NCBI GenBank assembly: GCA_027487075.1
Contig: JAIYEG010000002.1
Span: 1,244 to 65,243 of the forward strand
DNA: 64,000 nt
Direction: 5' to 3'
DNA from: a bacterium
GTDB taxonomy: Bacteria; Patescibacteriota; Minisyncoccia; Phycocordibacterales; CALRBL01
The notes under the pieces are model-generated. The model worked only from the letters and a program-made list of their open reading frames with translations. It ran no database searches and was not told where the DNA came from. A program made the position numbers and the translations under genes. Of the stretch, positions 3,354 through 54,137 are shown in pieces (the first letter of the stretch is position 1; each line of letters opens with the position of its first letter).

Positions 3354-4727
3354 ATGAAAACGCTTGGTATACATATCTTTCGTCGTGACCTGCGACTCGA
3401 GGACAATACCGCTCTCAATGCGCTCGCTCGGGAAGTCGACACTATTCTTCCCGTGTTTATTTTTGACAAACGACAGGTGAATGAACATCCGTATCGAAGT
3501 GTCCCTGGACTTCAAATGATGTGTGAATCACTTGGCGATCTTGATAGAACGCTCGCAGAACATGGCGCTGCCCTCTATATCGAAAGTGGAGTAGCAGAAG
3601 AAGTAGTAGAAAAACTCATCAAGACACATACACCTCACGCACTTTCTTTCAACAAAGATTACACGCCGTTTTCCGTAGATCGTGATGAGCGGATCACAAA
3701 GGTGTGCGAAACACATGGTGTGAAGGTGATCGCAGAACACGATGTGACCTTGTATGCACCTGGCACTGTACTCACCAAAGATGGCAAGCCTCATAGTGTA
3801 TATACACACTATCGTGTGGCGACAGAAGTATTGCCACTTCCTGCAGTACATCGGCTTGCAGCAAGTGCGGTATTCGCAAGACGTGAAGGTGGTGAATCAC
3901 TCACTGAGTACATTGCTCGACTTGTGCCGCATCCTGCAGGGCTTCGTGTCAAAGGGGGAAGAACGGTAGCAAAAGACATGCTCCGCGCACTCTCTCACAA
4001 CAAGACATATGCAAAAGAGCGAGATTTCCCCGCGATCAACGCCACCTCACTTTTGTCGGCACACATAAAGTTCGGCACGCTTTCAATACGTGAAATATAT
4101 GTGTATGCAAAAACTCACATGCCACACCCCGACGTCTTTTTGAGGGAGCTCCTCTGGCACGACTTCTTCACGACGGTTGCAGCACTCACACCACATGTCT
4201 ATACGGGGGCATATCGAAAAGAATTTGACAAACTCAAGTGGGATAACAACAAAGAGATGTTTGAGCGATGGAAGGAAGGTAAGACAGGATTTCCTATCGT
4301 CGATGCGGGTATGCGCGAGCTTCTCATGACGGGCTACATGCACAATCGCGTGCGTATGATCGTTGCATCATTTCTTATCAAAGATTTACATATCGATTGG
4401 CGATGGGGAGAAAAATATTTTGCTGAACGGCTTACTGACTACGATCCTGCGGTAAACAACGGCAACTGGCAGTGGGTCGCGGGGACGGGGTGTGATGCAT
4501 CGCCGTGGTTTCGTATCTTTAATCCGTGGCTCCAACAGAAAAAATTTGATGCTGAAGGGGTGTATATAAAAAAGTGGGTACCCGAACTCGCAGATCTTAG
4601 TATCGATGATATTCACGACGAGCGAGGTGATGCTCGCCATGCAGTAGGTTATCCACTTCCTCTGTGTAATCATCGTGAGGAAGCGGCGCGGACCAAAGAA
4701 CTATACGGTATCTTAAAAAAGCAATAG
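3354..4727 (+). CDS. phrB: Deoxyribodipyrimidine photolyase (cryptochrome/photolyase family)
   Basis: 457 aa. It has an N-terminal photolyase alpha/beta domain ('IHIFRRDLRLEDNTAL') and a C-terminal FAD-binding domain ('WRWGEKYFAERLTDYDPAVNNGNWQWVAGTG'). Confidence 0.85.
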   Translation: MKTLGIHIFRRDLRLEDNTALNALAREVDTILPVFIFDKRQVNEHPYRSVPGLQMMCESLGDLDRTLAEHGAALYIESGVAEEVVEKLIKTHTPHALSFNKDYTPFSVDRDERITKVCETHGVKVIAEHDVTLYAPGTVLTKDGKPHSVYTHYRVATEVLPLPAVHRLAASAVFARREGGESLTEYIARLVPHPAGLRVKGGRTVAKDMLRALSHNKTYAKERDFPAINATSLLSAHIKFGTLSIREIYVYAKTHMPHPDVFLRELLWHDFFTTVAALTPHVYTGAYRKEFDKLKWDNNKEMFERWKEGKTGFPIVDAGMRELLMTGYMHNRVRMIVASFLIKDLHIDWRWGEKYFAERLTDYDPAVNNGNWQWVAGTGCDASPWFRIFNPWLQQKKFDAEGVYIKKWVPELADLSIDDIHDERGDARHAVGYPLPLCNHREEAARTKELYGILKKQ

Positions 4728-4748
4728 GACGATGATATACTAGTCACT

Positions 4749-6107
4749 ATGAATTTCACAAAAGCATATGTTATTGCCGTCGATATGGGATATGGTCATC
4801 AGCGTGCAGCGTATCCACTAAAAGATATTTCGACCACGCCTGAAAGTTGGAACATCGCTGATCCTTATATTATCTCTGCAAACAATTATCCTGGTATTCC
4901 AAAGAAAGATGTCAAAATGTGGAATAGTGGTCGTGGGGTGTATGAGTGGATCTCTCGTATGCGTGAAATGCCGTTCATCGGAGAGCGATTGTTTGCACTC
5001 ATGAATTATTTTCAGCGTATCGAGCATTTTTATCCCAAGCGCGATCTTTCCAAATCATCATCGCAGTTAGATTACTTATATTTTCTCATTAAAAAACGTG
5101 GACTTGGAAAGCATTTGGTGCATGAGCTCAATAAAAATCCGTTGCCGATGATCACCACCTTCTTCACCCCTGCATTTTCTGCTGAAGTACACGGGTATAA
5201 AGGTGAAATATATTGCTTGTGTACTGATACCGATATTTCTCGAGCGTGGGTACCACAACATCCTGAAAACAGCCGCATCATCTATCTTGCACCGAGTCAC
5301 CGTGTGCAAGAGCGACTTAAAGCATACGGGGTATCACCAGAAAAAATCATCACCACAGGTTTCCCGCTCCCGAAGGAGTTGGTAGCTCCCGACACTGACA
5401 AAGATACACTCCTCAGGTCAGTGGTGCTTCGTCGCATTATGCGTCTTGATCCTACCGGCACATTCCGTGAGAAGTTTAAAGATCAGATCAAGGCTTCGCT
5501 TGGCACTGAAGTGTATGGTTCTCCTGATGAGCCCGTATCAGTGGCATTTGCTATTGGAGGAGCGGCAGCGCAATACCAGATCGGTCTTGATGTGATCAAA
5601 TCACTCGCGCCTGATATTAAAAATGGAAAAGTAAAACTCAACCTCATTGCTGGTGTATCAAATAAGATTTATCGTATTTTTGAGCAGGCACTTAAGAAAG
5701 AAGGGCTCGATTTGTTCCGAGGTAAGGGTGTCGACATTATCTATCATCCACAGAAGATGGATTACTTTAAGGAGTTTAATCATCTTTTGCTCGACACCGA
5801 TATTTTGTGGACAAAGCCGAGCGAGCTTTCGTTCTACGCAGGACTCGGGCTTCCTATCCTTATTGCACCAACACTTGGCTCACAAGAAGAATACAATGAA
5901 GAGTGGCTTCATGTGGTGAATGCGGGTATTGGACAGGGAAATCCAGTGTATACCCGCGAGTGGCTCTTTGATTGGCTTGAGTCGGGTATTCTTGCAAACC
6001 ATGCACTCAACGGATTTCTGAATGTATCAAAACGTGGTGCGTATCATATCGAGAGTGTGGTGATCAAGAACAAGCCAGAACAGATGCAGGATATTCATTT
6101 GGTATAA
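4749..6107 (+). CDS. GT28-family glycosyltransferase (MGDG-synthase/UgtP-like)
   Basis: It has the N-terminal 'VDMGYGHQRAA' G-loop and a C-terminal 'GSQEEYNEEW' motif resembling the UgtP/MurG 'GQEEENA' donor-binding region. Confidence 0.5.
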   Translation: MNFTKAYVIAVDMGYGHQRAAYPLKDISTTPESWNIADPYIISANNYPGIPKKDVKMWNSGRGVYEWISRMREMPFIGERLFALMNYFQRIEHFYPKRDLSKSSSQLDYLYFLIKKRGLGKHLVHELNKNPLPMITTFFTPAFSAEVHGYKGEIYCLCTDTDISRAWVPQHPENSRIIYLAPSHRVQERLKAYGVSPEKIITTGFPLPKELVAPDTDKDTLLRSVVLRRIMRLDPTGTFREKFKDQIKASLGTEVYGSPDEPVSVAFAIGGAAAQYQIGLDVIKSLAPDIKNGKVKLNLIAGVSNKIYRIFEQALKKEGLDLFRGKGVDIIYHPQKMDYFKEFNHLLLDTDILWTKPSELSFYAGLGLPILIAPTLGSQEEYNEEWLHVVNAGIGQGNPVYTREWLFDWLESGILANHALNGFLNVSKRGAYHIESVVIKNKPEQMQDIHLV

Positions 6108-6116
6108 TGTGCGTAT

Positions 6117-7025
6117 ATGATCTTTAGTTCATTCTTCATTGCGATTATCGGCTACGCACTCCTTGCTGTGGTGGCTATTCTCGACAAGCTCATTCTTTCA
6201 AAGGCGCTGAATACGTCTTCTTATACGTTCTATTCAAATCTCTTGTTTGGGTTTGCCTTTGTGATGTTGCCATTTGCGGAGCGTATCTCTTTAGAAGGTT
6301 TTTTGTGGTCTCTCGCATCAGGTTTGGGATTTGGCTTTGCGGCATGGGCAATGTTTATCGCGCTTGAGAAGAATGATGCAACACACATTATTCCATTTAT
6401 TGGTGCGATGACTGCAGTATGTACCTACGCACTTTCGGCGGTGGTACTTGGTGAATCGCTCACTCTTATTCAGACACTTGGTATCGTACTCTTGGTGGTT
6501 GCGAGTTTTTTGTTTGCCTACGAGCGAGATCGTGTGCGAGTGACGGGTATCAGCATGGGAGTGGTATGGGGAATTGTATCTGGATTGTTGTTTGCAATAT
6601 CACATGTCACCGCCAAAGTGGTATATGAACAGTACTCATTTGTCACTGGTTTTGCATGGACTAAGGGACTTGTTGTTCTTGTGGCACTGTGTGTATATCT
6701 CTTTGGTAAGAAAATGGGGCCAGCAAAAACAAAGCAGGTACCACATGCTGCACCTCGAGGACAACATAATAATTTTATACTTATTGCGGTTGATAAAATT
6801 GCAGCATTGCTCGGTATCGTCGCAGTACAGTATGCAATGTCTATTGGGAGTGTGACTATTGTGACGGGGCTTGTGGGACTTCAGTATGCACTCATTCTTA
6901 TCTACGCTCTTATCTTTACTACGTTTACTCCTCGTTTCTTTACCGAATATATTACGCGCAAAGAAATATTATTTGAAGGAACAGCTATTCTGCTTGTTAT
7001 TGGTGGTGCGGTATTACTTGCATAA
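6117..7025 (+). CDS. DMT-superfamily (EamA-like) transporter
   Basis: 302 aa with about 10 predicted TM helices and the duplicated EamA-like architecture. Confidence 0.55.
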   Translation: MIFSSFFIAIIGYALLAVVAILDKLILSKALNTSSYTFYSNLLFGFAFVMLPFAERISLEGFLWSLASGLGFGFAAWAMFIALEKNDATHIIPFIGAMTAVCTYALSAVVLGESLTLIQTLGIVLLVVASFLFAYERDRVRVTGISMGVVWGIVSGLLFAISHVTAKVVYEQYSFVTGFAWTKGLVVLVALCVYLFGKKMGPAKTKQVPHAAPRGQHNNFILIAVDKIAALLGIVAVQYAMSIGSVTIVTGLVGLQYALILIYALIFTTFTPRFFTEYITRKEILFEGTAILLVIGGAVLLA

Positions 7026-7030
7026 AACAT

Positions 7031-8038
7031 ATGAAAAAAGTTCCACGACATATATATCTGAAAAGAATGGGGATAGTGTTTGGCGGACTCGTGGTGGTGT
7101 ATGCATTGATGTGGATCGGATCGCTCAAGACATACCCTACTGACTTCGGTATAAGCTTCAGTCCCGAGTATGCACGTTCGCTCGGTCTTGATGCACAAGA
7201 AACCTTTGATGCTATTTTAGAAGACCTCAAGCCTACCACCGTGCGTTTGGCTGTGCCTTGGAATAAAGTAGAGCCAGAACAGGGGGTGTTTGATTATGCT
7301 GAAGTTGATAGGTTGCTTGAAAAAGCGGGAACTGCAGGAAGTAAGGTGGTACTGACGGTCGGACAAAAAGTGCCACGCTGGCCTGAGTGCTACATTCCCA
7401 CCTGGGCAGCCGCACTTCCTAAAGAAGAGCAAGAACAACAGCTTCTCAACTACGTTGCAACCACTATCAACCGCTATAAAGACAATCCTGCAATCGAACT
7501 GTGGCAAGCAGAAAATGAGGCATTCATCAACTTTCCTTTTGGTGAATGTGATGCATTCGATAGGGATTCGGTCACCAAAGAAATTGCACTTATCAGGCAG
7601 CTTGACCCGACGCGTCAGATTGTAACGACCGATAGTGGAGAATTGTCGACCTATCGCGTGGCATCACGAGAGGGTGATATTCTTGGTACGACGTTATATC
7701 GCACGACACGCGTCTCAGGAGGTTTTATTGTGCGTTATGATTGGCTCCCCCCAGCATTTTATAAGTTGAAAGCACGACTATGGGGAAATGATTATGAACA
7801 TTTTTTTGTATCAGAACTTCAGGCCGAGCCTTGGTTTGAAGGTGGCATGCCAAGCACCCTTGAGGGCTTTATGAAAGAGAAAACCTTTAGTCCAGAACGC
7901 TTTAGAGAAAATATTGCGTATGCTCACAGAGTCGGTGCATCTCGCGTTTACCTGTGGGGAGCGGAGTGGTGGTACTTTATGAAGACAAAGATTGGTGATA
8001 GTCGGTATTGGGAGGTGGCAGAAGAGCTATTTCAATAA
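7031..8038 (+). CDS. Membrane-anchored clan GH-A (TIM-barrel) glycoside hydrolase-like protein
   Basis: It has an N-terminal TM helix and an 'ENE' acid/base-type motif ('WQAENEAF'), with similarity to the GH5/GH42 N-terminal barrel. Confidence 0.45.
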   Translation: MKKVPRHIYLKRMGIVFGGLVVVYALMWIGSLKTYPTDFGISFSPEYARSLGLDAQETFDAILEDLKPTTVRLAVPWNKVEPEQGVFDYAEVDRLLEKAGTAGSKVVLTVGQKVPRWPECYIPTWAAALPKEEQEQQLLNYVATTINRYKDNPAIELWQAENEAFINFPFGECDAFDRDSVTKEIALIRQLDPTRQIVTTDSGELSTYRVASREGDILGTTLYRTTRVSGGFIVRYDWLPPAFYKLKARLWGNDYEHFFVSELQAEPWFEGGMPSTLEGFMKEKTFSPERFRENIAYAHRVGASRVYLWGAEWWYFMKTKIGDSRYWEVAEELFQ

Positions 8039-21523: not shown

Positions 21524-22804
21524 CTAAAGCACGTCTTTTATCTCCCACATCTTCATACTATTACTCCCTTTGATGAGTACTGCCGAGTTTCGGATGCTCG
21601 AAGCGAATGGTGAACCGAGAAAAGCTGCTCGGTCAGGAAATGCAGCATAACGCTTCACGGATTCGTGGGCTTTGGTGAATGCGGGGCCGATGAGAACGAC
21701 ATTAGTGAATCCATAGAAAGAAATGTCGTTGAGAATGTTTGCATGTTCTTTTTCTTCGTACGCGCCGAGTTCCTTCATGTCGCCAAGGATAAGCCACTTT
21801 GGTTTTGTGGTGGTGTAGCGAGAAAATGATTCGATAACAGCGTGCATGCTCGAAGGGTTGGCATTGTATGCATCGAGAATGATGTCATTGCCTTTTGAGG
21901 TGCTGATGATCTGGCTGCGCATGTTGGTCGGCACGTAGTTTCGGAGTGCTTTGTTAATGGTCACGGTCGGCACTTTGAAATGCTTGCCGATTGCATATGC
22001 CGTGCGCATGTTTTCCTTATTGTAGTCGCCGAAGAGGTTTGGATTCTCGGGAACTACCTCCTGGCCGTAGCGGATAGTGACGGCACTGCACCCTGGGTCG
22101 ATGGAATACAACAGAGAGGTAAGAGATGGGTCGGTTTCATTGATGAACACGATCGCCATATGATCGCGGAGGTATTCATAGAGTTCACCATTTGCTATGG
22201 CAACATTTTCTTTTGAGCCGAAGCCTTCGAGGTGGTCGCTGCCGTTGTTGGTGATGACGCCATGTGTTGGTGCTACGATTTCGCAAAGTGCCGCAGTTTC
22301 TTTGAGGTGGTTGGCGCCAATTTCGATGACGGCAATCTCGGTGCTTTTTTTGATGCGCAGGAGCGTGAGTGGTACGCCGATATGATTGTTGTGATTGTCT
22401 TCGGTCTTCACGATGAGATACTTTTCGGAGAGGACCGCAGCGGTGAGCTCTTTGGTGGTGGTTTTGCCGTTTGATCCACAAATAGCGATCACGGGCATGG
22501 AATATTGCATGCGATGGTGGTGCGCGAGTGTCTGGAGTGCCGTGAGTGCGTCGTGAGTGGCACCTTCGTGCTCGAAGTAGATGATGCGATCTGCGTTCTT
22601 TTCAAAGCGCGGGTCAGCCTTGAGTGAGAGGTCGTCGACTACTGCCGCAGCAGCGCCTTTGTCGAGTGCCTCGAATGCAAACTGATTGCCATCAAAGCTC
22701 TCGCCCTTGAGAGCAAAAAACAGGGAATTGCGGGCGATCTTGCGGGTATCGGTCGACACGCTGTCGCATTCTTTGAAGAGGTGATACAGCTCAGTGAGAT
22801 TCAT
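21524..22804 (-). CDS. murF: UDP-N-acetylmuramoyl-tripeptide--D-alanyl-D-alanine ligase
   Basis: It has the Mur ligase P-loop 'ICGSNGKTTTKE' and the typical MurF domain order and length. Confidence 0.85.
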   Translation of the reverse strand: MNLTELYHLFKECDSVSTDTRKIARNSLFFALKGESFDGNQFAFEALDKGAAAAVVDDLSLKADPRFEKNADRIIYFEHEGATHDALTALQTLAHHHRMQYSMPVIAICGSNGKTTTKELTAAVLSEKYLIVKTEDNHNNHIGVPLTLLRIKKSTEIAVIEIGANHLKETAALCEIVAPTHGVITNNGSDHLEGFGSKENVAIANGELYEYLRDHMAIVFINETDPSLTSLLYSIDPGCSAVTIRYGQEVVPENPNLFGDYNKENMRTAYAIGKHFKVPTVTINKALRNYVPTNMRSQIISTSKGNDIILDAYNANPSSMHAVIESFSRYTTTKPKWLILGDMKELGAYEEKEHANILNDISFYGFTNVVLIGPAFTKAHESVKRYAAFPDRAAFLGSPFASSIRNSAVLIKGSNSMKMWEIKDVL

Positions 22805-22867
22805 GTGAATATCGTAGCATATCTTTCTCGTTGATTATGTGAATAAATATTGTGGAACATTTGATGA

Positions 22868-23332
22868 GTGAGATGGGAGGATGGGGTGATGGAGGAATAT
22901 GATGTGTGGAATGAAGATAAGAAGCAACTTGCGAAAATAAGTAAGCGATTCATGTTCAAAGTGGGTGAAATCTGGTGGTGTTCTGTTGGCTTAAATATCG
23001 GAACTGAAGTGAGGGGAAAAGGTGATAAATTTCGTCGTCCGATTCTTATACTTAAGAAACTTTCGTATGATTCTTGTGTTGGATTGCCTTTGACTACTCA
23101 ACCAAAGAAAGGAAGTTGGTATCTAGAGGTGTGCATTCCTGAGGGAAGAAGGTGGATTATGCTTCACCAAATTAAAATGGTGCATGTTAAAAGATTTCAA
23201 AAGAAACTCTCACAAATTTCCCAAGAAGATTTCCAAAAGACAAAAGAAAAACTCGGGCAGTTGCTCGAGTTGTTAGATCATCACCCAGCCGTCGCTGGGA
23301 TCGATGGGATGGCTCCCCAAAATGTGCCGTAA
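22868..23332 (+). CDS. PemK/MazF-fold (Kid-like) endoribonuclease-toxin homologue, orphan
   Basis: 'VGEIWWCSVGLNIGTEVRG...RRPILIL...GLPLTT' follows the MazF/Kid pattern GEIW..G.E..G.RP.LVL..TT. No antitoxin-sized ORF lies upstream. Confidence 0.55.
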   Translation: MRWEDGVMEEYDVWNEDKKQLAKISKRFMFKVGEIWWCSVGLNIGTEVRGKGDKFRRPILILKKLSYDSCVGLPLTTQPKKGSWYLEVCIPEGRRWIMLHQIKMVHVKRFQKKLSQISQEDFQKTKEKLGQLLELLDHHPAVAGIDGMAPQNVP

Positions 23333-23371
23333 CGTTATTTCAGCACGATTAAACTATATACCAAATCAAAC

Positions 23372-25087
23372 ATGAGTCAATGCGTAAATAAATCAAAACT
23401 AATATATAATCCTCCCATGACCCAAAAGGAAGCATTCGACATACTGAAGACTGGAGTAAACGTGTATATCACGGGTGCTGCTGGCGCAGGCAAGACGCAC
23501 CTTCTCAATATGTATATCGACTATCTGCGCGAGCACGACGTGGCCTTCGGCATCACCGCATCCACGGGTATCGCAGCAACACACATGGGTGGAGTGACAA
23601 TTCACTCATGGACAGGGCTTGGGGTGCGAAGCGAGCTCACACCCTATGATCTCGAGTCACTTCAAGAAAAACAATATCTGTACCGGCGTATCGAAAAAGC
23701 GAGTGTGCTTATTATCGACGAGGTATCGATGCTCCACCATTTTCGTCTCGATATGATTGATCAGGTACTCCGCGCATTCAAGCGTGTGGATGCACCCTTT
23801 GGTGGGATGCAGGTGGTGCTGTGTGGAGACTTTTTCCAGCTCCCGCCAGTGTCGCGCATGGGTGAACCTGATCCAAAATTTATCTACCATTCTCGTGCAT
23901 GGAAAGAAGGGCAGTTTAAGGTCTGCTACCTCGAAGAGCAGTTTCGTCACAATGATGATGTGGCGGTGCGTGTACTCAACGATATCCGCAATGATCGCGT
24001 CGATCGTGGCACTATGCAACATATCGAACATCGCTTCACGACTGAGCGTTCAGAGATGTCGCCGCTTCGTTTGTACACACACAATGTTGATGTCGACAAG
24101 GTGAATGACCAAGAGCTCTACCGACTTCGTGGTGACATGATGACCTACGACATGGAAACACGTGGTAATGCAACACTCGTCGATATATTGAAGAAGAGCT
24201 GTTTGGCTCCAGAATTTTTGAAGCTCAAGGTGGGAGCGAAGGTAATGTTCGTGAAGAATAATTTTGAGGCAGGATATGCAAACGGTACGCTTGGTATCGT
24301 CAAAGAGCTCGAGGGCTTTAGTGGTGGTCCCGTAGTGGAGACGTACGGAGGCAAAACCATTGAAGTACCTGTCGAGAGTTGGGTCATCGAAGAAGATGGC
24401 AAAATAAAAGCAGAGCTCAAGCAATATCCACTTCGTTTGGCATGGGCAATCACCATCCACAAGAGTCAGGGAATGAGTTTGGATATGGTGGAGGTGGATT
24501 TGTCACGCTCCTTCGAAAAGGGTATGGGATATGTGGCGCTGTCGCGTGTGCGTTCGTGGGATGGGCTGTCGATTCTTGGTTTCAACGATGAAGCACTTGC
24601 GGTGGATGGTGAGGTACTTGCGTATGATAAGCAACTACGAGCGCAATCGAATAAAGCAAAGGCACAACTCTACGAAATGAAGGAAAGTAGCACACTCGCC
24701 AAAAAGCAGGAAACATTCTTGAAGCGTATTTCGCCAAAAGCGAATCCAAAGCAGAAAGTGGTAAAGCCCTCGACATTCCAAAAGACGCTCGCACTCCTTC
24801 AGGAGCAGGTATCACTTGCTCAGATTGCAAAACATCGTGGTGTCACTGAAGAGACGGTACTCTCGCATATCGAAACATTGCTCGAAGAAGGACAGATTAC
24901 GAAAGGCGCGATTGAATATTTGATTAAAGGATTTTCAAAAAAGAAATATGATGAGATTGCCGCCCTTCTTAAGAAATTTCACTCGGAAAATGATGATTGG
25001 CGCCTAGCGCCGGTACGTGCTGCGCTTGGTGACCGTCCGAGCTATCGAGATATTCAGCTGGTGAGGTTGTTTGTGAGGAAGTGGTAG
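23372..25087 (+). CDS. Pif1/RecD-family ATP-dependent DNA helicase with a C-terminal HTH domain
   Basis: It has Walker A 'GAAGAGKT', helicase motifs ('IDEVSMLHH', 'VVLCGDFFQLPPV') and a C-terminal HTH ('IAKHRGVTEETVLSHIETLLEEG'). Confidence 0.8.
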   Translation: MSQCVNKSKLIYNPPMTQKEAFDILKTGVNVYITGAAGAGKTHLLNMYIDYLREHDVAFGITASTGIAATHMGGVTIHSWTGLGVRSELTPYDLESLQEKQYLYRRIEKASVLIIDEVSMLHHFRLDMIDQVLRAFKRVDAPFGGMQVVLCGDFFQLPPVSRMGEPDPKFIYHSRAWKEGQFKVCYLEEQFRHNDDVAVRVLNDIRNDRVDRGTMQHIEHRFTTERSEMSPLRLYTHNVDVDKVNDQELYRLRGDMMTYDMETRGNATLVDILKKSCLAPEFLKLKVGAKVMFVKNNFEAGYANGTLGIVKELEGFSGGPVVETYGGKTIEVPVESWVIEEDGKIKAELKQYPLRLAWAITIHKSQGMSLDMVEVDLSRSFEKGMGYVALSRVRSWDGLSILGFNDEALAVDGEVLAYDKQLRAQSNKAKAQLYEMKESSTLAKKQETFLKRISPKANPKQKVVKPSTFQKTLALLQEQVSLAQIAKHRGVTEETVLSHIETLLEEGQITKGAIEYLIKGFSKKKYDEIAALLKKFHSENDDWRLAPVRAALGDRPSYRDIQLVRLFVRKW

Positions 25088-25218
25088 TAGGGTGAAAATA
25101 GAGAAATAAAAAACCGCCTGCCCCACAATCAGTTACGATGGGGACAGACGGCATATGCTTGTGGGGTCATTGACCTACCTCAAGCTTTGTTAAGGGTTTG
25201 GTTTGCGAAGTTATCGTG

Positions 25219-25578
25219 TCACTGGCGTGAGCTGGTGCGGTCCGATGCCGCAGGCTCGCGCACGTGCGCGATCATCACAGTGTTGCTTTCGCCGAGGTCG
25301 AAGCCGAAGCTCCCGACCCGATACCAGCAGTCAGAGACCGCCGGAGTGTCTTCCTTGAGACGCTCAGTAGCGAAACACTCACACGGTGGTGGAGGTTTCC
25401 CAGTAGAACGAATGAAGGAAAATGTGTCTGGAGGGGGCATAGGTCCGAGAGTGAGTACATCATGGTACTCAAATTCTGGAACAAGCACCTCTCCGAAATT
25501 GGCATCACATTCCTCGGGAATGACGATAACAAGAGATGGTCCGAGGGCCATCAAAACCGCGAAACGAAGAGAACTCAT
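25219..25578 (-). CDS. Small predicted secreted Cys/Pro-containing protein, hypothetical
   Basis: 119 aa with a signal-peptide-like N-terminus. It lies in a locally GC-rich segment and has a terminator hairpin downstream on the minus strand at about 25110-25150. A competing antisense ORF 25187..25597(+) exists. Confidence 0.3.
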   Translation of the reverse strand: MSSLRFAVLMALGPSLVIVIPEECDANFGEVLVPEFEYHDVLTLGPMPPPDTFSFIRSTGKPPPPCECFATERLKEDTPAVSDCWYRVGSFGFDLGESNTVMIAHVREPAASDRTSSRQ

Positions 25579-25655
25579 TGCTTGCGTACGAATGTAGCAC
25601 GATTATGAAAAATGTAAATTTTGTGGTGTGAAGACGAGAAGCATATACTTACGGT

Positions 25656-26060
25656 ATGAATGAAGAAGATATCAAGAAAAAATTGACCTCAGAAGAATAT
25701 ACGGTGCTCCGACAAAAAGGCACCGAAGCTCCTTTTTCTGGAAAGTATGTGAATAGCAAAGAAAAGGGTGTGTATGTGTGTAAGGTGTGCGGACAAAAAT
25801 TATTTTCATCTGATACTAAGTTTGATTCTGGTACCGGATGGCCGAGCTTCTATGATGCGGTGCCTGGAAGTGTCGAGTTTGTACACGATGATACGCATGG
25901 GATGCGACGTACGGAAGTAGTGTGTTCAAAGTGTAAGTCACATCTTGGGCATGTGTTTGATGATGGATTTGGAACACCGACGAATAAACGCGATTGCATG
26001 AACTCGGTGTGTTTGGATTTGTTGCCTGAGTCTGAAGAAAATAAAAACGCCAATAATTAA
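25656..26060 (+). CDS. msrB: Peptide-methionine (R)-S-oxide reductase
   Basis: It has two CxxC zinc motifs and the catalytic 'RxCxN'-region ('GHVFDDG') typical of SelR/MsrB. Confidence 0.85.
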   Translation: MNEEDIKKKLTSEEYTVLRQKGTEAPFSGKYVNSKEKGVYVCKVCGQKLFSSDTKFDSGTGWPSFYDAVPGSVEFVHDDTHGMRRTEVVCSKCKSHLGHVFDDGFGTPTNKRDCMNSVCLDLLPESEENKNANN

Positions 26061-26063
26061 CTA

Positions 26064-26333
26064 ATGTCTAAAACATTTTCTGAAAAAGTGCGAGATGTGG
26101 TGTCAAAGATTCCGAAAGGAAGCGTGATGACCTATAAAGAAGTTGCTAAGAAAGCGGGAAATGAAAAAGCTGCTCGTGCAGTGGGTACGGTGATGCGCAA
26201 AAACTATGACCTTGCCGTATTTTGTCATCGGGTCATCAAAAGTGATGGAACGGTGGGGAATTATAATCGCGGAGGTGCGAAGGTGAAACAAAAGATGCTT
26301 ATTAAAGAAGGAGTGTTAATTGAGCGTATATGA
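26064..26333 (+). CDS. MGMT-family (Ogt C-terminal domain-only) DNA-binding protein
   Basis: 89 aa. It has 'AARAVGTVMRKN' and the active-site-like 'FCHRVI' (the PCHRV variant). Confidence 0.6.
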   Translation: MSKTFSEKVRDVVSKIPKGSVMTYKEVAKKAGNEKAARAVGTVMRKNYDLAVFCHRVIKSDGTVGNYNRGGAKVKQKMLIKEGVLIERI

Positions 26334-26686
26334 ATAACCATGAACAACAGCGTCAGATCAATAGAGAAGAAGTGGTAAGGGAAATTCAGGAATCACATGG
26401 TGATTCAGAATATTTTGATGATGCTCTTAGAGAGTTGATTAGTGCGTGGGCTGAACAAGAATATTATAAACTAGGTTCAGATGCTGAAAGTGTGGTTGGT
26501 CAAATAGGAATTATAATTAGTGAGGCAGAGTTGTTTGCTGATGCTGGTCATCCAAGGATTGCAATAAGTTGCTTGTGGAATGCTTTGCAATGGGCTGAAC
26601 AGTATGATGATGAAAATTTGGAGCGCAGTATAAAGAGTAAAATGCTAGATATTGATCCTTCGTTGGAGTTCGAACCTAAGCAATAA
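26330..26686 (+). CDS. Hypothetical acidic protein
   Basis: 118-aa ORF wedged between the MGMT-like gene and msrA with 4-bp overlaps. Confidence 0.4.
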   Translation: MNNHEQQRQINREEVVREIQESHGDSEYFDDALRELISAWAEQEYYKLGSDAESVVGQIGIIISEAELFADAGHPRIAISCLWNALQWAEQYDDENLERSIKSKMLDIDPSLEFEPKQ

Positions 26687-54064: not shown

Positions 54065-54137
54065 GGGCCCCTAGCTCATCTGGTAGAGCGCCTCATTTGC
54101 ACTGAGGAGGTGAGCGGTTCGAGTCCGCTGGGGTCCA
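54065..54137 (+). tRNA. tRNA-Ala (anticodon UGC)
   Basis: It folds as a cloverleaf. The acceptor stem GGGCCCC/GGGGTCC carries the diagnostic G3:U70 pair. The anticodon stem-loop CCTCA-TTTGCAC-TGAGG gives anticodon TGC. The T-arm is GGTTCGAGTCC. CCA is not encoded. Confidence 0.85.

Follow-up and report, generated by a model that had tools for sequence, protein, structure and literature searches.

A MazF-fold gene with a predicted convergent antisense small RNA: a candidate type I-like toxin–antitoxin module beside a core Pif1 helicase gene in the Candidate Phyla Radiation

The DNA considered here is a stretch of 64,000 nucleotides (hereafter, the window) of contig JAIYEG010000002.1 from a patescibacterial genome assembly (GCA_027487075.1), i.e., from the Candidate Phyla Radiation (CPR). 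The NCBI record of the contig spans 153 kb, and the contig has also been assembled from run SRR16126832. Between murF and msrB, it harbors a gene for a MazF/PemK-fold protein (the MazF-like gene), a gene for a Pif1-family helicase, and a GC-rich open reading frame (ORF) of 119 aa, orf119. On the opposite strand, the 3′ end of the MazF-like gene is overlapped by a predicted gene for a small RNA. These two convergent genes may represent a mobile toxin–antitoxin (TA) module of a type I-like design, equipped with a MazF-fold toxin and lodged next to the core helicase gene.

The MazF-like gene and the RNA gene predicted at its 3′ end

The MazF-like gene (22889–23332, plus strand) belongs to a CPR-wide family of solitary genes and encodes a putative endoribonuclease of 147 aa. 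The ORF enclosing it (22868–23332) matches the Pfam family PF02452 (PemK_toxin) at E = 1e-13 with 51.8 bits (cutoff 23.1), covering the profile in full (positions 1–109). Translation probably starts at the ATG at 22889, eight nt past a GGAGG motif, and the resulting 147-aa product is identical in two public gene calls. The structure inferred with AlphaFold2 (predicted local distance difference test score, pLDDT, 80; predicted TM-score, pTM, 0.72) displays the SH3-like beta-barrel of the MazF/Kid fold, supplemented with an N-terminal helix (residues 2–16) and a C-terminal helix (residues 112–131). The top 50 PDB entries retrieved with this model by Foldseek were MazF throughout (probability 1.0, target-normalised TM-score 0.68–0.82).

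Residues W7, K11, W29–W30, G34, N36, E40, G43, R50–P51 and P67 are invariant in 20 family members, and T69 is kept in at least 90% of them. In the profile alignment, the Glu, Arg-Pro and Thr positions line up with the active-site region of Bacillus subtilis EndoA (GSEQGG..RP, T) and Escherichia coli MazF; E40, R50 and T69 are taken by us to be the equivalents of E24, R29 and T52 of the E. coli protein. Since the counterparts of these active-site residues are conserved, the MazF-like protein is expected to be an active RNase.

As read off the sequence, the promoter and leader of the gene occupy the divergent intergenic region of 84 bp (22805–22888, plus strand), including the putative Shine–Dalgarno (SD) sequence GGAGG at 22876–22880. 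The start of murF lies at the other end of this region, which leaves no space for a protein antitoxin ORF upstream of the MazF-like gene. An adjacent, co-transcribed protein antitoxin, the mark of type II systems, was found neither in the window nor across 96 genes of the family: all-against-all BLAST and inspection of the adjacent small ORFs revealed no recurring protein partner among the small ORFs flanking them. In one relative (locus L006), the MazF-like gene is preceded by a 66-aa ORF (2149–2349) with its own terminator hairpin and zero Pfam matches; an antitoxin function is improbable for this ORF, given its absence from the window.

Hence, the first-pass annotation of this DNA was right to describe a MazF-fold gene devoid of a protein antitoxin. 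The same gene was also called an orphan, which stands as far as protein partners are concerned but probably not otherwise, because it shares its 3′ end with a conserved small-RNA gene on the antisense strand. The annotation had named an antitoxin overlapping the 5′ end among the findings that would refute its reading; the candidate encountered here, an RNA antitoxin located at the 3′ end, is close to that finding in spirit only.

The cis-antisense small RNA, a candidate RNA antitoxin, is predicted on the minus strand at ~23240–23346 (~105 nt) from its match to the covariance model R1 (see below), its fold and its covariation. It is preceded by a sigma70-type promoter (23353–23380, minus strand; TTGACT, 16 nt, TATAGT; a 10/12 match), the highest-scoring promoter found in this region, with the −10 box at 23353–23358. 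The promoter is located just 3′ of the MazF stop codon, i.e., outside the toxin coding sequence (CDS). From its 5′ end, the RNA would comprise a lineage-specific hairpin, the conserved segment UUUUGGGG-loop-CCC-AUCGAUC, a covarying hairpin (23299–23284), and a terminator hairpin (23271–23250) with a U-tract; the terminator sits within the codons for the C-terminal helix of the MazF-like protein (VKEKLEALLEL). The predicted RNA, which folds into four hairpins (−37.1 kcal/mol, z −2.0), is a perfect complement of the final ~93 nt of the MazF CDS together with the start of the 3′ untranslated region (UTR). In the window, R1 matches positions 23236–23329 of the minus strand with 75.5 bits (E = 3e-20), and zero families of Rfam 15 match the RNA.

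The antisense element across the MazF-like family

The family is large: among 1.84 billion clusters formed at 50% identity, 3,475 representatives were retrieved at E ≤ 1e-3, 1,941 at E ≤ 1e-10 and 409 at E ≤ 1e-30. The relatives are hosted almost exclusively by Parcubacteria, Saccharibacteria, Gracilibacteria and similar lineages represented by metagenome-assembled genomes (MAGs), and 160 loci were found among GTDB species representatives. Viral carriage is rare, with two matches in 2.9 million IMG/VR contigs, and the matches in INPHARED are confined to Campylobacter prophages. Distant members (27–38% identical) reside on plasmids of Campylobacter, Helicobacter and Nitratiruptor, and CJIE4 prophages of Campylobacter harbor family members between the terminase and portal genes (e.g., at 2486–2920 of L170, CJIE4-3). 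In the three contexts of the distant Campylobacterota members that were inspected, there was no annotated antitoxin beside the gene. Some of the family-bearing MAGs carry gammaproteobacterial, alphaproteobacterial or Rickettsiales labels (L015, L051, L069, L074, L077), which may reflect the true host as well as mis-binning or mislabeling.

Across the loci of the family, MazF-like genes occupy many unlike contexts. In ten of them (L012, L017, L020, L028, L033, L036, L037, L051, L060, L079), two copies lie no more than ~6 kb apart, in some cases as a tandem. One insertion site was encountered repeatedly in different CPR genomes, namely between the N- and C-terminal halves of a split transketolase (L003, at 6001–6396; L045; L073; L083).

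Comparison of 14 related loci revealed in every one of them the same succession of elements on the antisense strand. It begins with TTGAC(A/T), an unrelated spacer of 16–18 nt and TATA(A/C/G)T, followed by a conserved CUUUUGGG-loop-CCCACCGAUC segment. Next comes a hairpin of 6–9 bp with a locus-specific stem sequence and, mostly, a tetraloop, and then a UGAUGAU spacer. The last element is a hairpin of 9–10 bp with a U-tract, situated inside the codons for the C-terminal helix of the MazF-like protein.

On the sense strand, the same DNA gives rise to a peptide-like motif, GSVGNPKS (GIDGMAPQN in the window). The spacing between this motif and the MazF core is constant, yet the motif occurs in all three frames and often past the stop codon, which indicates a constraint at the level of nucleotides and not of protein. 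The C-terminal tails DHHP...GSVGNPKS (family proteins P0002, P0003, P0007) and GIDGMAPQNVP (23283–23329 in the window) look like read-through of the DNA encoding the small RNA.

The covariance model R1, built on 11 sequences with three helices specified, detected the element at the 3′ ends of MazF-like genes, on the antisense strand, in ~29 of 86 loci (E < 0.01), including 12 loci outside the seed alignment scoring 36–83 bits. Searches of 629 kb of Pif1-centred loci and of the remainder of the window returned zero matches below E 0.05, so that the element is tied exclusively to MazF-like 3′ ends in these comparisons. A single weak match was recorded elsewhere (L073, 11978–12073, minus strand; 22.6 bits, E 0.004), ~5.7 kb from the MazF-like gene and near the end of the locus; it might stem from another module, truncated where the retrieved sequence ends, or be fortuitous. 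In L079, which has two MazF-like copies, R1 matches the 3′ ends of both.

The helices are backed by covariation. In the model alignment of 26 sequences, 97.6% of the cells were paired, versus 75% after shuffling and ~60% with slid partners. Compensatory change was present in 17 of the 19 pairs and amounted to 98 cells versus 22.5 expected, a figure reached by none of the 500 shuffles. In the raw MAFFT alignment, 88% of the cells were paired and 11 of the 19 pairs were compensatory; RNAalifold run on this alignment missed the middle hairpin due to misalignment, and the structure was then specified and the sequences realigned with the covariance model. The orientation of the transcript is suggested by the prevalence of G-U cells (19) over A-C cells (3) and by the U-tract, which appears in the antisense reading alone.

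A scan independent of sequence similarity was performed for the 96 MazF-like genes, searching for sigma70 matches of at least 10/12 within −20 to +160 nt of the stop codon. Antisense promoters turned up at 65 of them, versus eight of 96 on the sense strand and three of 75 in the regions following Pif1 genes (Fisher p ~3e-18 and ~3e-19, respectively). They were also found at 41 of the 64 genes without an R1 match. A strict intrinsic terminator 30–190 nt after the −10 box (median ~70 nt) was present as well in 42 of the 96 cases; in the mirrored control, there was none (0/96). At several MazF-like genes, e.g., in L004, L014 and L018, the arrangement TATAAT-N6-8-ATG was also observed; it recurs at the helicase gene described below.

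Gene order around the Pif1 helicase gene

The helicase gene (23417–25087, plus strand; 556 aa) follows the MazF-like gene at a distance of 84 bp and not 40 bp, as initially reported, when its start is placed at M16 of the long ORF (ATG 23417), in line with the homologues and the gene calls. The first-pass identification of a Pif1/RecD-family helicase with a C-terminal helix-turn-helix (HTH) domain was confirmed by Pfam: PIF1 (PF05970, E 3.5e-37), Pif1_2B (PF21530, E 1.7e-8) and a C-terminal HTH_40 (E 1.6e-15) were all detected in this superfamily 1B (SF1B) enzyme. Its best structural counterparts in PDB are the PIF1 structure 5o6b (E 2e-69) and Bacteroides Pif1 (5fhd, 9e-57). The full helicase core and the 2B/SH3 domain are common to the window protein and to the Pif1 of Bacteroides, yeast and human, whereas the bacterial C-terminal HTH_40 extension sets the window protein apart from them.

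A −10 box, TATAAT (23405–23410, plus strand), is situated 6 nt before the ATG at 23417. The same box 6–8 nt before the ATG, in the arrangement TATAATCC..CC-ATG, is retained in the window, L006, L005 and L103, regardless of whether the MazF-like gene is present. Its conservation on both backgrounds indicates that Pif1 is served by a promoter of its own, as predicted from the sequence, and suggests that its mRNA is leaderless or nearly so.

A scan of metagenome contigs yielded 382 full-length relatives of the helicase, of which the best 80 (49–76% identical) were searched for the neighbor proteins of the window. In the closest ones (L089, L090, L091 and L103; Pif1 64–76% identical), the order is PMM(-) murF(-) <> Pif1(+) msrB(+) ... 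msrA, and murF is separated from Pif1 by only 46–66 bp, with neither the MazF-like gene nor orf119 present. In L089–L091, msrB starts ~47 bp past Pif1; the L103 contig stops within Pif1. Synteny of murF with PMM and Pif1 was recovered in L006, L088–L091 and L103. In L006, the order is murF, the 66-aa ORF, MazF, Pif1, and in L005 it is MscL, MazF, Pif1. The closely related L088 has unrelated genes at both junctions: a gene of ~120 aa with its own terminator between murF and Pif1 (4560–4930) and, between Pif1 and msrB, a minus-strand gene of 199 aa for a type IV pilin-like protein with the N-terminal GFTLIELLVV (6724–7323). Judging from L088, both junctions beside Pif1 act like insertion hotspots.

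The junctions flanking Pif1 can be regarded as variable slots, since the backbone is kept while their content differs among relatives. As far as sequence comparison tells, the region is a conserved backbone, PMM-murF<>Pif1-msrB-...-msrA, interrupted by two independent single-gene insertions. Its boundaries in the window, correctly named from the outset, are the core genes murF on the left (21524–22804, minus strand, divergent from the MazF-like gene; TIGR01143, 319 bits, and Mur ligase Pfam domains) and msrB on the right (25656–26060, plus strand; SelR, E 4e-49), which adjoins the 3′ end of Pif1 in L089–L091. The notion of accessory genes therefore survives in part: in the closest relatives, the same junctions lack both the MazF-like gene and orf119, but the helicase is a core, syntenic gene outside the module.

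Other signs of a joint accessory unit were looked for as well. A recurring pairing of toxin and helicase, proposed by the first-pass annotation, did not materialize: no Pif1 homologue lies within 6 kb of the MazF-like gene in any of 80 GTDB species-representative genomes, and the family hidden Markov model (HMM) found a MazF-like gene in just one of the 80 Pif1-centred loci (L126), where the 33%-identical member is consistent with a separate insertion. On these counts and the synteny, a functional linkage of MazF and Pif1 was rejected, and the helicase is an unrelated housekeeping neighbor of the module. No model in PADLOC-DB v2 fits the MazF-like protein or orf119; for the helicase, the matches to the RecD-like and PDC-S68 models are confined to the generic SF1 core. 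Nor do the genes form one compositionally deviant block: the MazF-like gene has a GC content of 40.5% (z −1.9), resembling that of msrB, ogt and hyp118, whereas orf119 reaches 55% (z +2.7), and the tetranucleotide distance falls within the 50th–67th percentile. Neither direct or inverted repeats bounding the inserts, nor an integrase, nor a nearby tRNA gene were found (the only tRNA is at 54065). Despite the absence of these island hallmarks, the presence and absence pattern in the relatives corresponds to two indels.

The second slot, between Pif1 and msrB, is filled independently of the first by orf119 (25219–25578, minus strand; 119 aa). It is vacant in L089–L091 and, as mentioned, contains the pilin-like gene in L088. 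An intrinsic terminator follows orf119 (25113–25152, minus strand): a stem and then UUUUUUAUUU, with −24.4 kcal/mol and z −4.5, and none of 200 shuffles as stable. The ORF reported by the first-pass annotation in a stretch of ~60% GC is real; the local maximum amounts to 62.7% in a 150-nt window (25200–25349), but the ORF itself is at 55% and the whole window at 46%. Among the six frames, that of orf119 has the top codon score (0.149 versus a gene mean of 0.28 ± 0.12), and a hydrophobic N-terminal stretch is visible in its product. A search among 5.8 billion clustered proteins returned only the protein itself, and there were zero Pfam, NCBIfam or PADLOC matches. The possibility that the GC-rich stretch is an RNA gene (RNase P, tmRNA, 6S) was considered and rejected: it has no Rfam match at the gathering score or at E ≤ 10 and contains no tRNA or tmRNA, and this reading is also opposed by the best-scoring minus-strand frame and the terminator. 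Overall, orf119 is best described as a lineage-specific gene without known relatives, unrelated to the MazF module.

Farther to the right, an ORF of 118 aa (hyp118, 26330–26686), with zero Pfam, NCBIfam or PADLOC matches, is located between an ogt-like DNA-binding gene and msrA. Its GC content of 38% (z −2.7) is the minimum of the neighborhood; an msrB-msrA interval also exists in L089 and L090.

A candidate RNA-controlled toxin and competing explanations

Taken together, the MazF-like gene and the convergent RNA may be interpreted, with a probability of about 0.6, as a mobile type I-like TA module with a MazF-fold toxin, inserted beside the core Pif1 gene. The first insertion (~22805–23395) would then be a self-contained unit of two genes, one for the MazF-fold protein and one for the convergent small RNA of ~105 nt. 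Gene content, synteny, the MazF fold with its conserved active site, and the promoter, covarying structure and terminator of the antisense unit at MazF-like 3′ ends are results of the computation, whereas expression of the RNA, toxicity of the protein and neutralization of the latter by the former are what we infer. Most likely, the RNA would pair with the MazF mRNA at its 3′ end and thereby lower toxin production via degradation triggered by the duplex and/or via convergent transcription, filling the antitoxin role that no neighboring protein fills. An RNA in this role implies a type I-like TA system with a toxin in the style of type II. Whether the same holds for the solo MazF-fold toxins throughout CPR, with relatives on Campylobacterota plasmids and prophages, so that these constitute a hybrid TA class neutralized by convergent antisense RNAs acting in cis, is a wider proposition that could go either way.

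Several points weigh against this interpretation. The R1 signal falls partly on conserved CDS (that of the C-terminal helix), and the alignment built with the model favors the modeled structure. Furthermore, R1 detects about one third of the family loci; elsewhere, the evidence comes from the generic promoter and terminator scans. The RNA shows no tendency to pair with the 5′/Shine–Dalgarno region of the MazF mRNA: the interaction energy with its own target was −17.8 kcal/mol versus −17.4 for cross and −17.5 for shuffled pairs, i.e., zero signal. With zero extra complementarity to the 5′ region and the ribosome-binding site of the toxin, a translational block by SD occlusion is unlikely, and the repression, if real, would probably depend on convergent transcription or on the duplex at the 3′ end. 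The toxins of classical type I systems are small membrane peptides, and it is usually a protein that neutralizes MazF. Finally, the existence of the RNA, the position of its ends and its action are predicted, and the toxicity of the family is putative.

With regard to the established TA types, the complementarity of an antisense RNA to the toxin mRNA, which is the hallmark of type I, is present here by sequence prediction. The toxin, at 147 aa and of the soluble-type MazF fold, departs from the hydrophobic peptides of <60 aa typical of type I. Assignment to type III finds no basis in ToxI-like tandem repeats, as the sole tandem repeat is a trivial array of two 9-nt copies and the RNA is convergent.

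The antisense RNA could also be real and yet fine-tune a domesticated, non-addictive RNase (a housekeeping or stress RNase of CPR) displaying no TA behavior. This is unlikely, albeit worth serious consideration: the family is widespread and chromosomal in CPR (160 GTDB loci, two of 2.9 million viral contigs), antisense RNAs that modulate rather than neutralize mazEF are known, e.g., aMEF (PMC8749433), and a solitary MazF has been recruited to development in Myxococcus (PMC2701414). Still, the gene is patchily present among close relatives, its insertion sites differ and include the gap between split transketolase genes, ten loci carry it in multiple copies, and some members travel on plasmids and prophages of Campylobacterota. 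This combination points to the behavior of a mobile toxin module and not of a housekeeping gene. Another line of thought accepts the toxin but has the small RNA neutralize the protein by direct binding in the type III-like manner of ToxI-ToxN, and not by pairing with the mRNA. The ToxN-type toxins do share a Kid/MazF-like fold, and the conserved single-stranded segments CUUUUGGG, ACCGAUC and UGAUGAU exceed the needs of antisense pairing. However, part of this conservation stems from the overlapping coding and stop-codon region, the tandem repeats of ToxI are absent, and the RNA is convergent and antisense instead of being placed upstream on the same strand, so direct binding is held to be quite improbable.

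The existence of the transcript itself may be questioned, given that it is known from sequence prediction: the 3′ element could be a structure of the sense 3′ UTR, could be translated into a C-terminal tail, or could serve the mobile cassette as its site of recombination or attachment. Indeed, in some loci, the window included, the element continues the reading frame and is translated into such a tail, and hairpins at the 3′ ends of cassettes typify recombination sites. This explanation has a slim chance: the promoter hexamers are conserved in the antisense orientation only, with variable spacers between them, the U-tract and the G-U pairs suit the antisense strand only, the element occurs in three frames and often past the stop codon, and flanking direct or inverted repeats were looked for and not found. 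The initial proposal of a single anti-phage islet, uniting the MazF-like nuclease, Pif1 and the putatively secreted ORF between murF and msrB, is the least credible of all. It drew on the contiguity of the three genes and could be extended by the adjacency of Pif1 to MazF in L005 and L006 and to a distant MazF in L126, as well as by the partial match of the helicase to RecD-like PADLOC models. This match concerns the generic SF1 core, and none was obtained for MazF or orf119; the latter is without a homologue, and the GC contents of the two genes deviate in opposite directions. As Pif1 has its own putative promoter, occupies the same place without either gene in L089–L091 and L103, and shows the co-occurrence counts of 0/80 and 1/80, the islet is largely refuted by synteny.

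MazF proteins are textbook type II toxins, and the E. coli MazF, B. subtilis EndoA/YdcE and Staphylococcus aureus MazF belong to the same Pfam family as the window protein, sharing its fold and the active-site Glu, Arg-Pro and Thr. Unlike them, the window protein features an additional N-terminal helix with invariant Trp and Lys, and has a convergent antisense RNA instead of an antitoxin of the MazE, AbrB or ribbon-helix-helix (RHH) type, none of which was found alongside the 96 family genes. The geometry of the module is that of txpA/RatA and bsrG/SR4 of B. subtilis and par of Enterococcus faecalis, in which the toxin gene and an RNA gene with an intrinsic terminator are convergent, the RNA being complementary to the 3′-terminal part of the toxin mRNA. 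The toxins of these systems are, however, small hydrophobic membrane peptides, whereas that of the window is a 147-aa RNase-fold protein of the MazF kind from a CPR lineage, and no sequence or Rfam relation of the window RNA to antisense RNAs of the txpA/RatA type was found. To our knowledge, SymE is the only well-known type I toxin of the RNase type. SymE/SymR and the window module thus have in common the control of an RNase-type toxin by a cis-antisense RNA, but SymE is of an AbrB-like fold and SymR is situated at the 5′ end, in contrast to the MazF fold and the 3′ overlap seen here. Among type I systems, SymE/SymR has been listed as an outlier, with ribonuclease as the target and a distribution that is broad (PMC5367252). 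An antisense RNA on a mazEF operon, aMEF, has been reported from Enterococcus (PMC8749433); it stimulates the expression of a canonical mazE-mazF pair, on which it acts, whereas the window lacks MazE and the RNA is the sole candidate partner.

The predicted module of a MazF toxin and an antisense RNA recurs widely in CPR, where it appears to be undescribed. CPR bacteria largely lack CRISPR; if the proposed role of the RNA is true, they gain a recognizable RNA-controlled toxin module, and RNA-antitoxin systems are extended into this radiation. More than half of the toxin homologues in genomes look ‘solo’, for which RNA antitoxins have been suggested, without demonstration, as one explanation (Makarova et al., PMC2701414), and the prevailing view of type I systems is one of narrow distribution and of tiny membrane peptides as toxins (PMC5367252). 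An antisense RNA partner for a MazF family of ~1,900 clusters would bear on both, and, if real, would help to explain the excess of solitary toxins. The RNA would also represent a new structured family outside Rfam, and the proposal is directly testable, since the promoter lies outside the toxin CDS. For annotation practice, the locus is a warning that the adjacency of a toxin and a helicase is no proof of a defense system unless synteny has been checked.

A possible experimental precedent comes from Campylobacter jejuni 81-176, where CjrA, an antisense small RNA, is reported to be the antitoxin of a type I TA system on the plasmid pVir (PMC10470494, PMC7826846). The only annotated toxin of pVir is a member of the MazF subfamily, 34.5% identical to the window protein and without an annotated partner (L168/L171, 30630–31034). 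This protein may be CjpT, the toxin of the pair, and CjrA/CjpT is a lead in this sense; if the two are the same, the window case would be distantly related, from within CPR, to a system demonstrated by experiment. R1 gives no match on pVir. By eye, a hairpin CCCCG-CTCTATGA-CGGGG is discernible there right after the stop codon, and ATTATA (TATAAT on the other strand) ~80 nt downstream, an arrangement compatible with a convergent small RNA.

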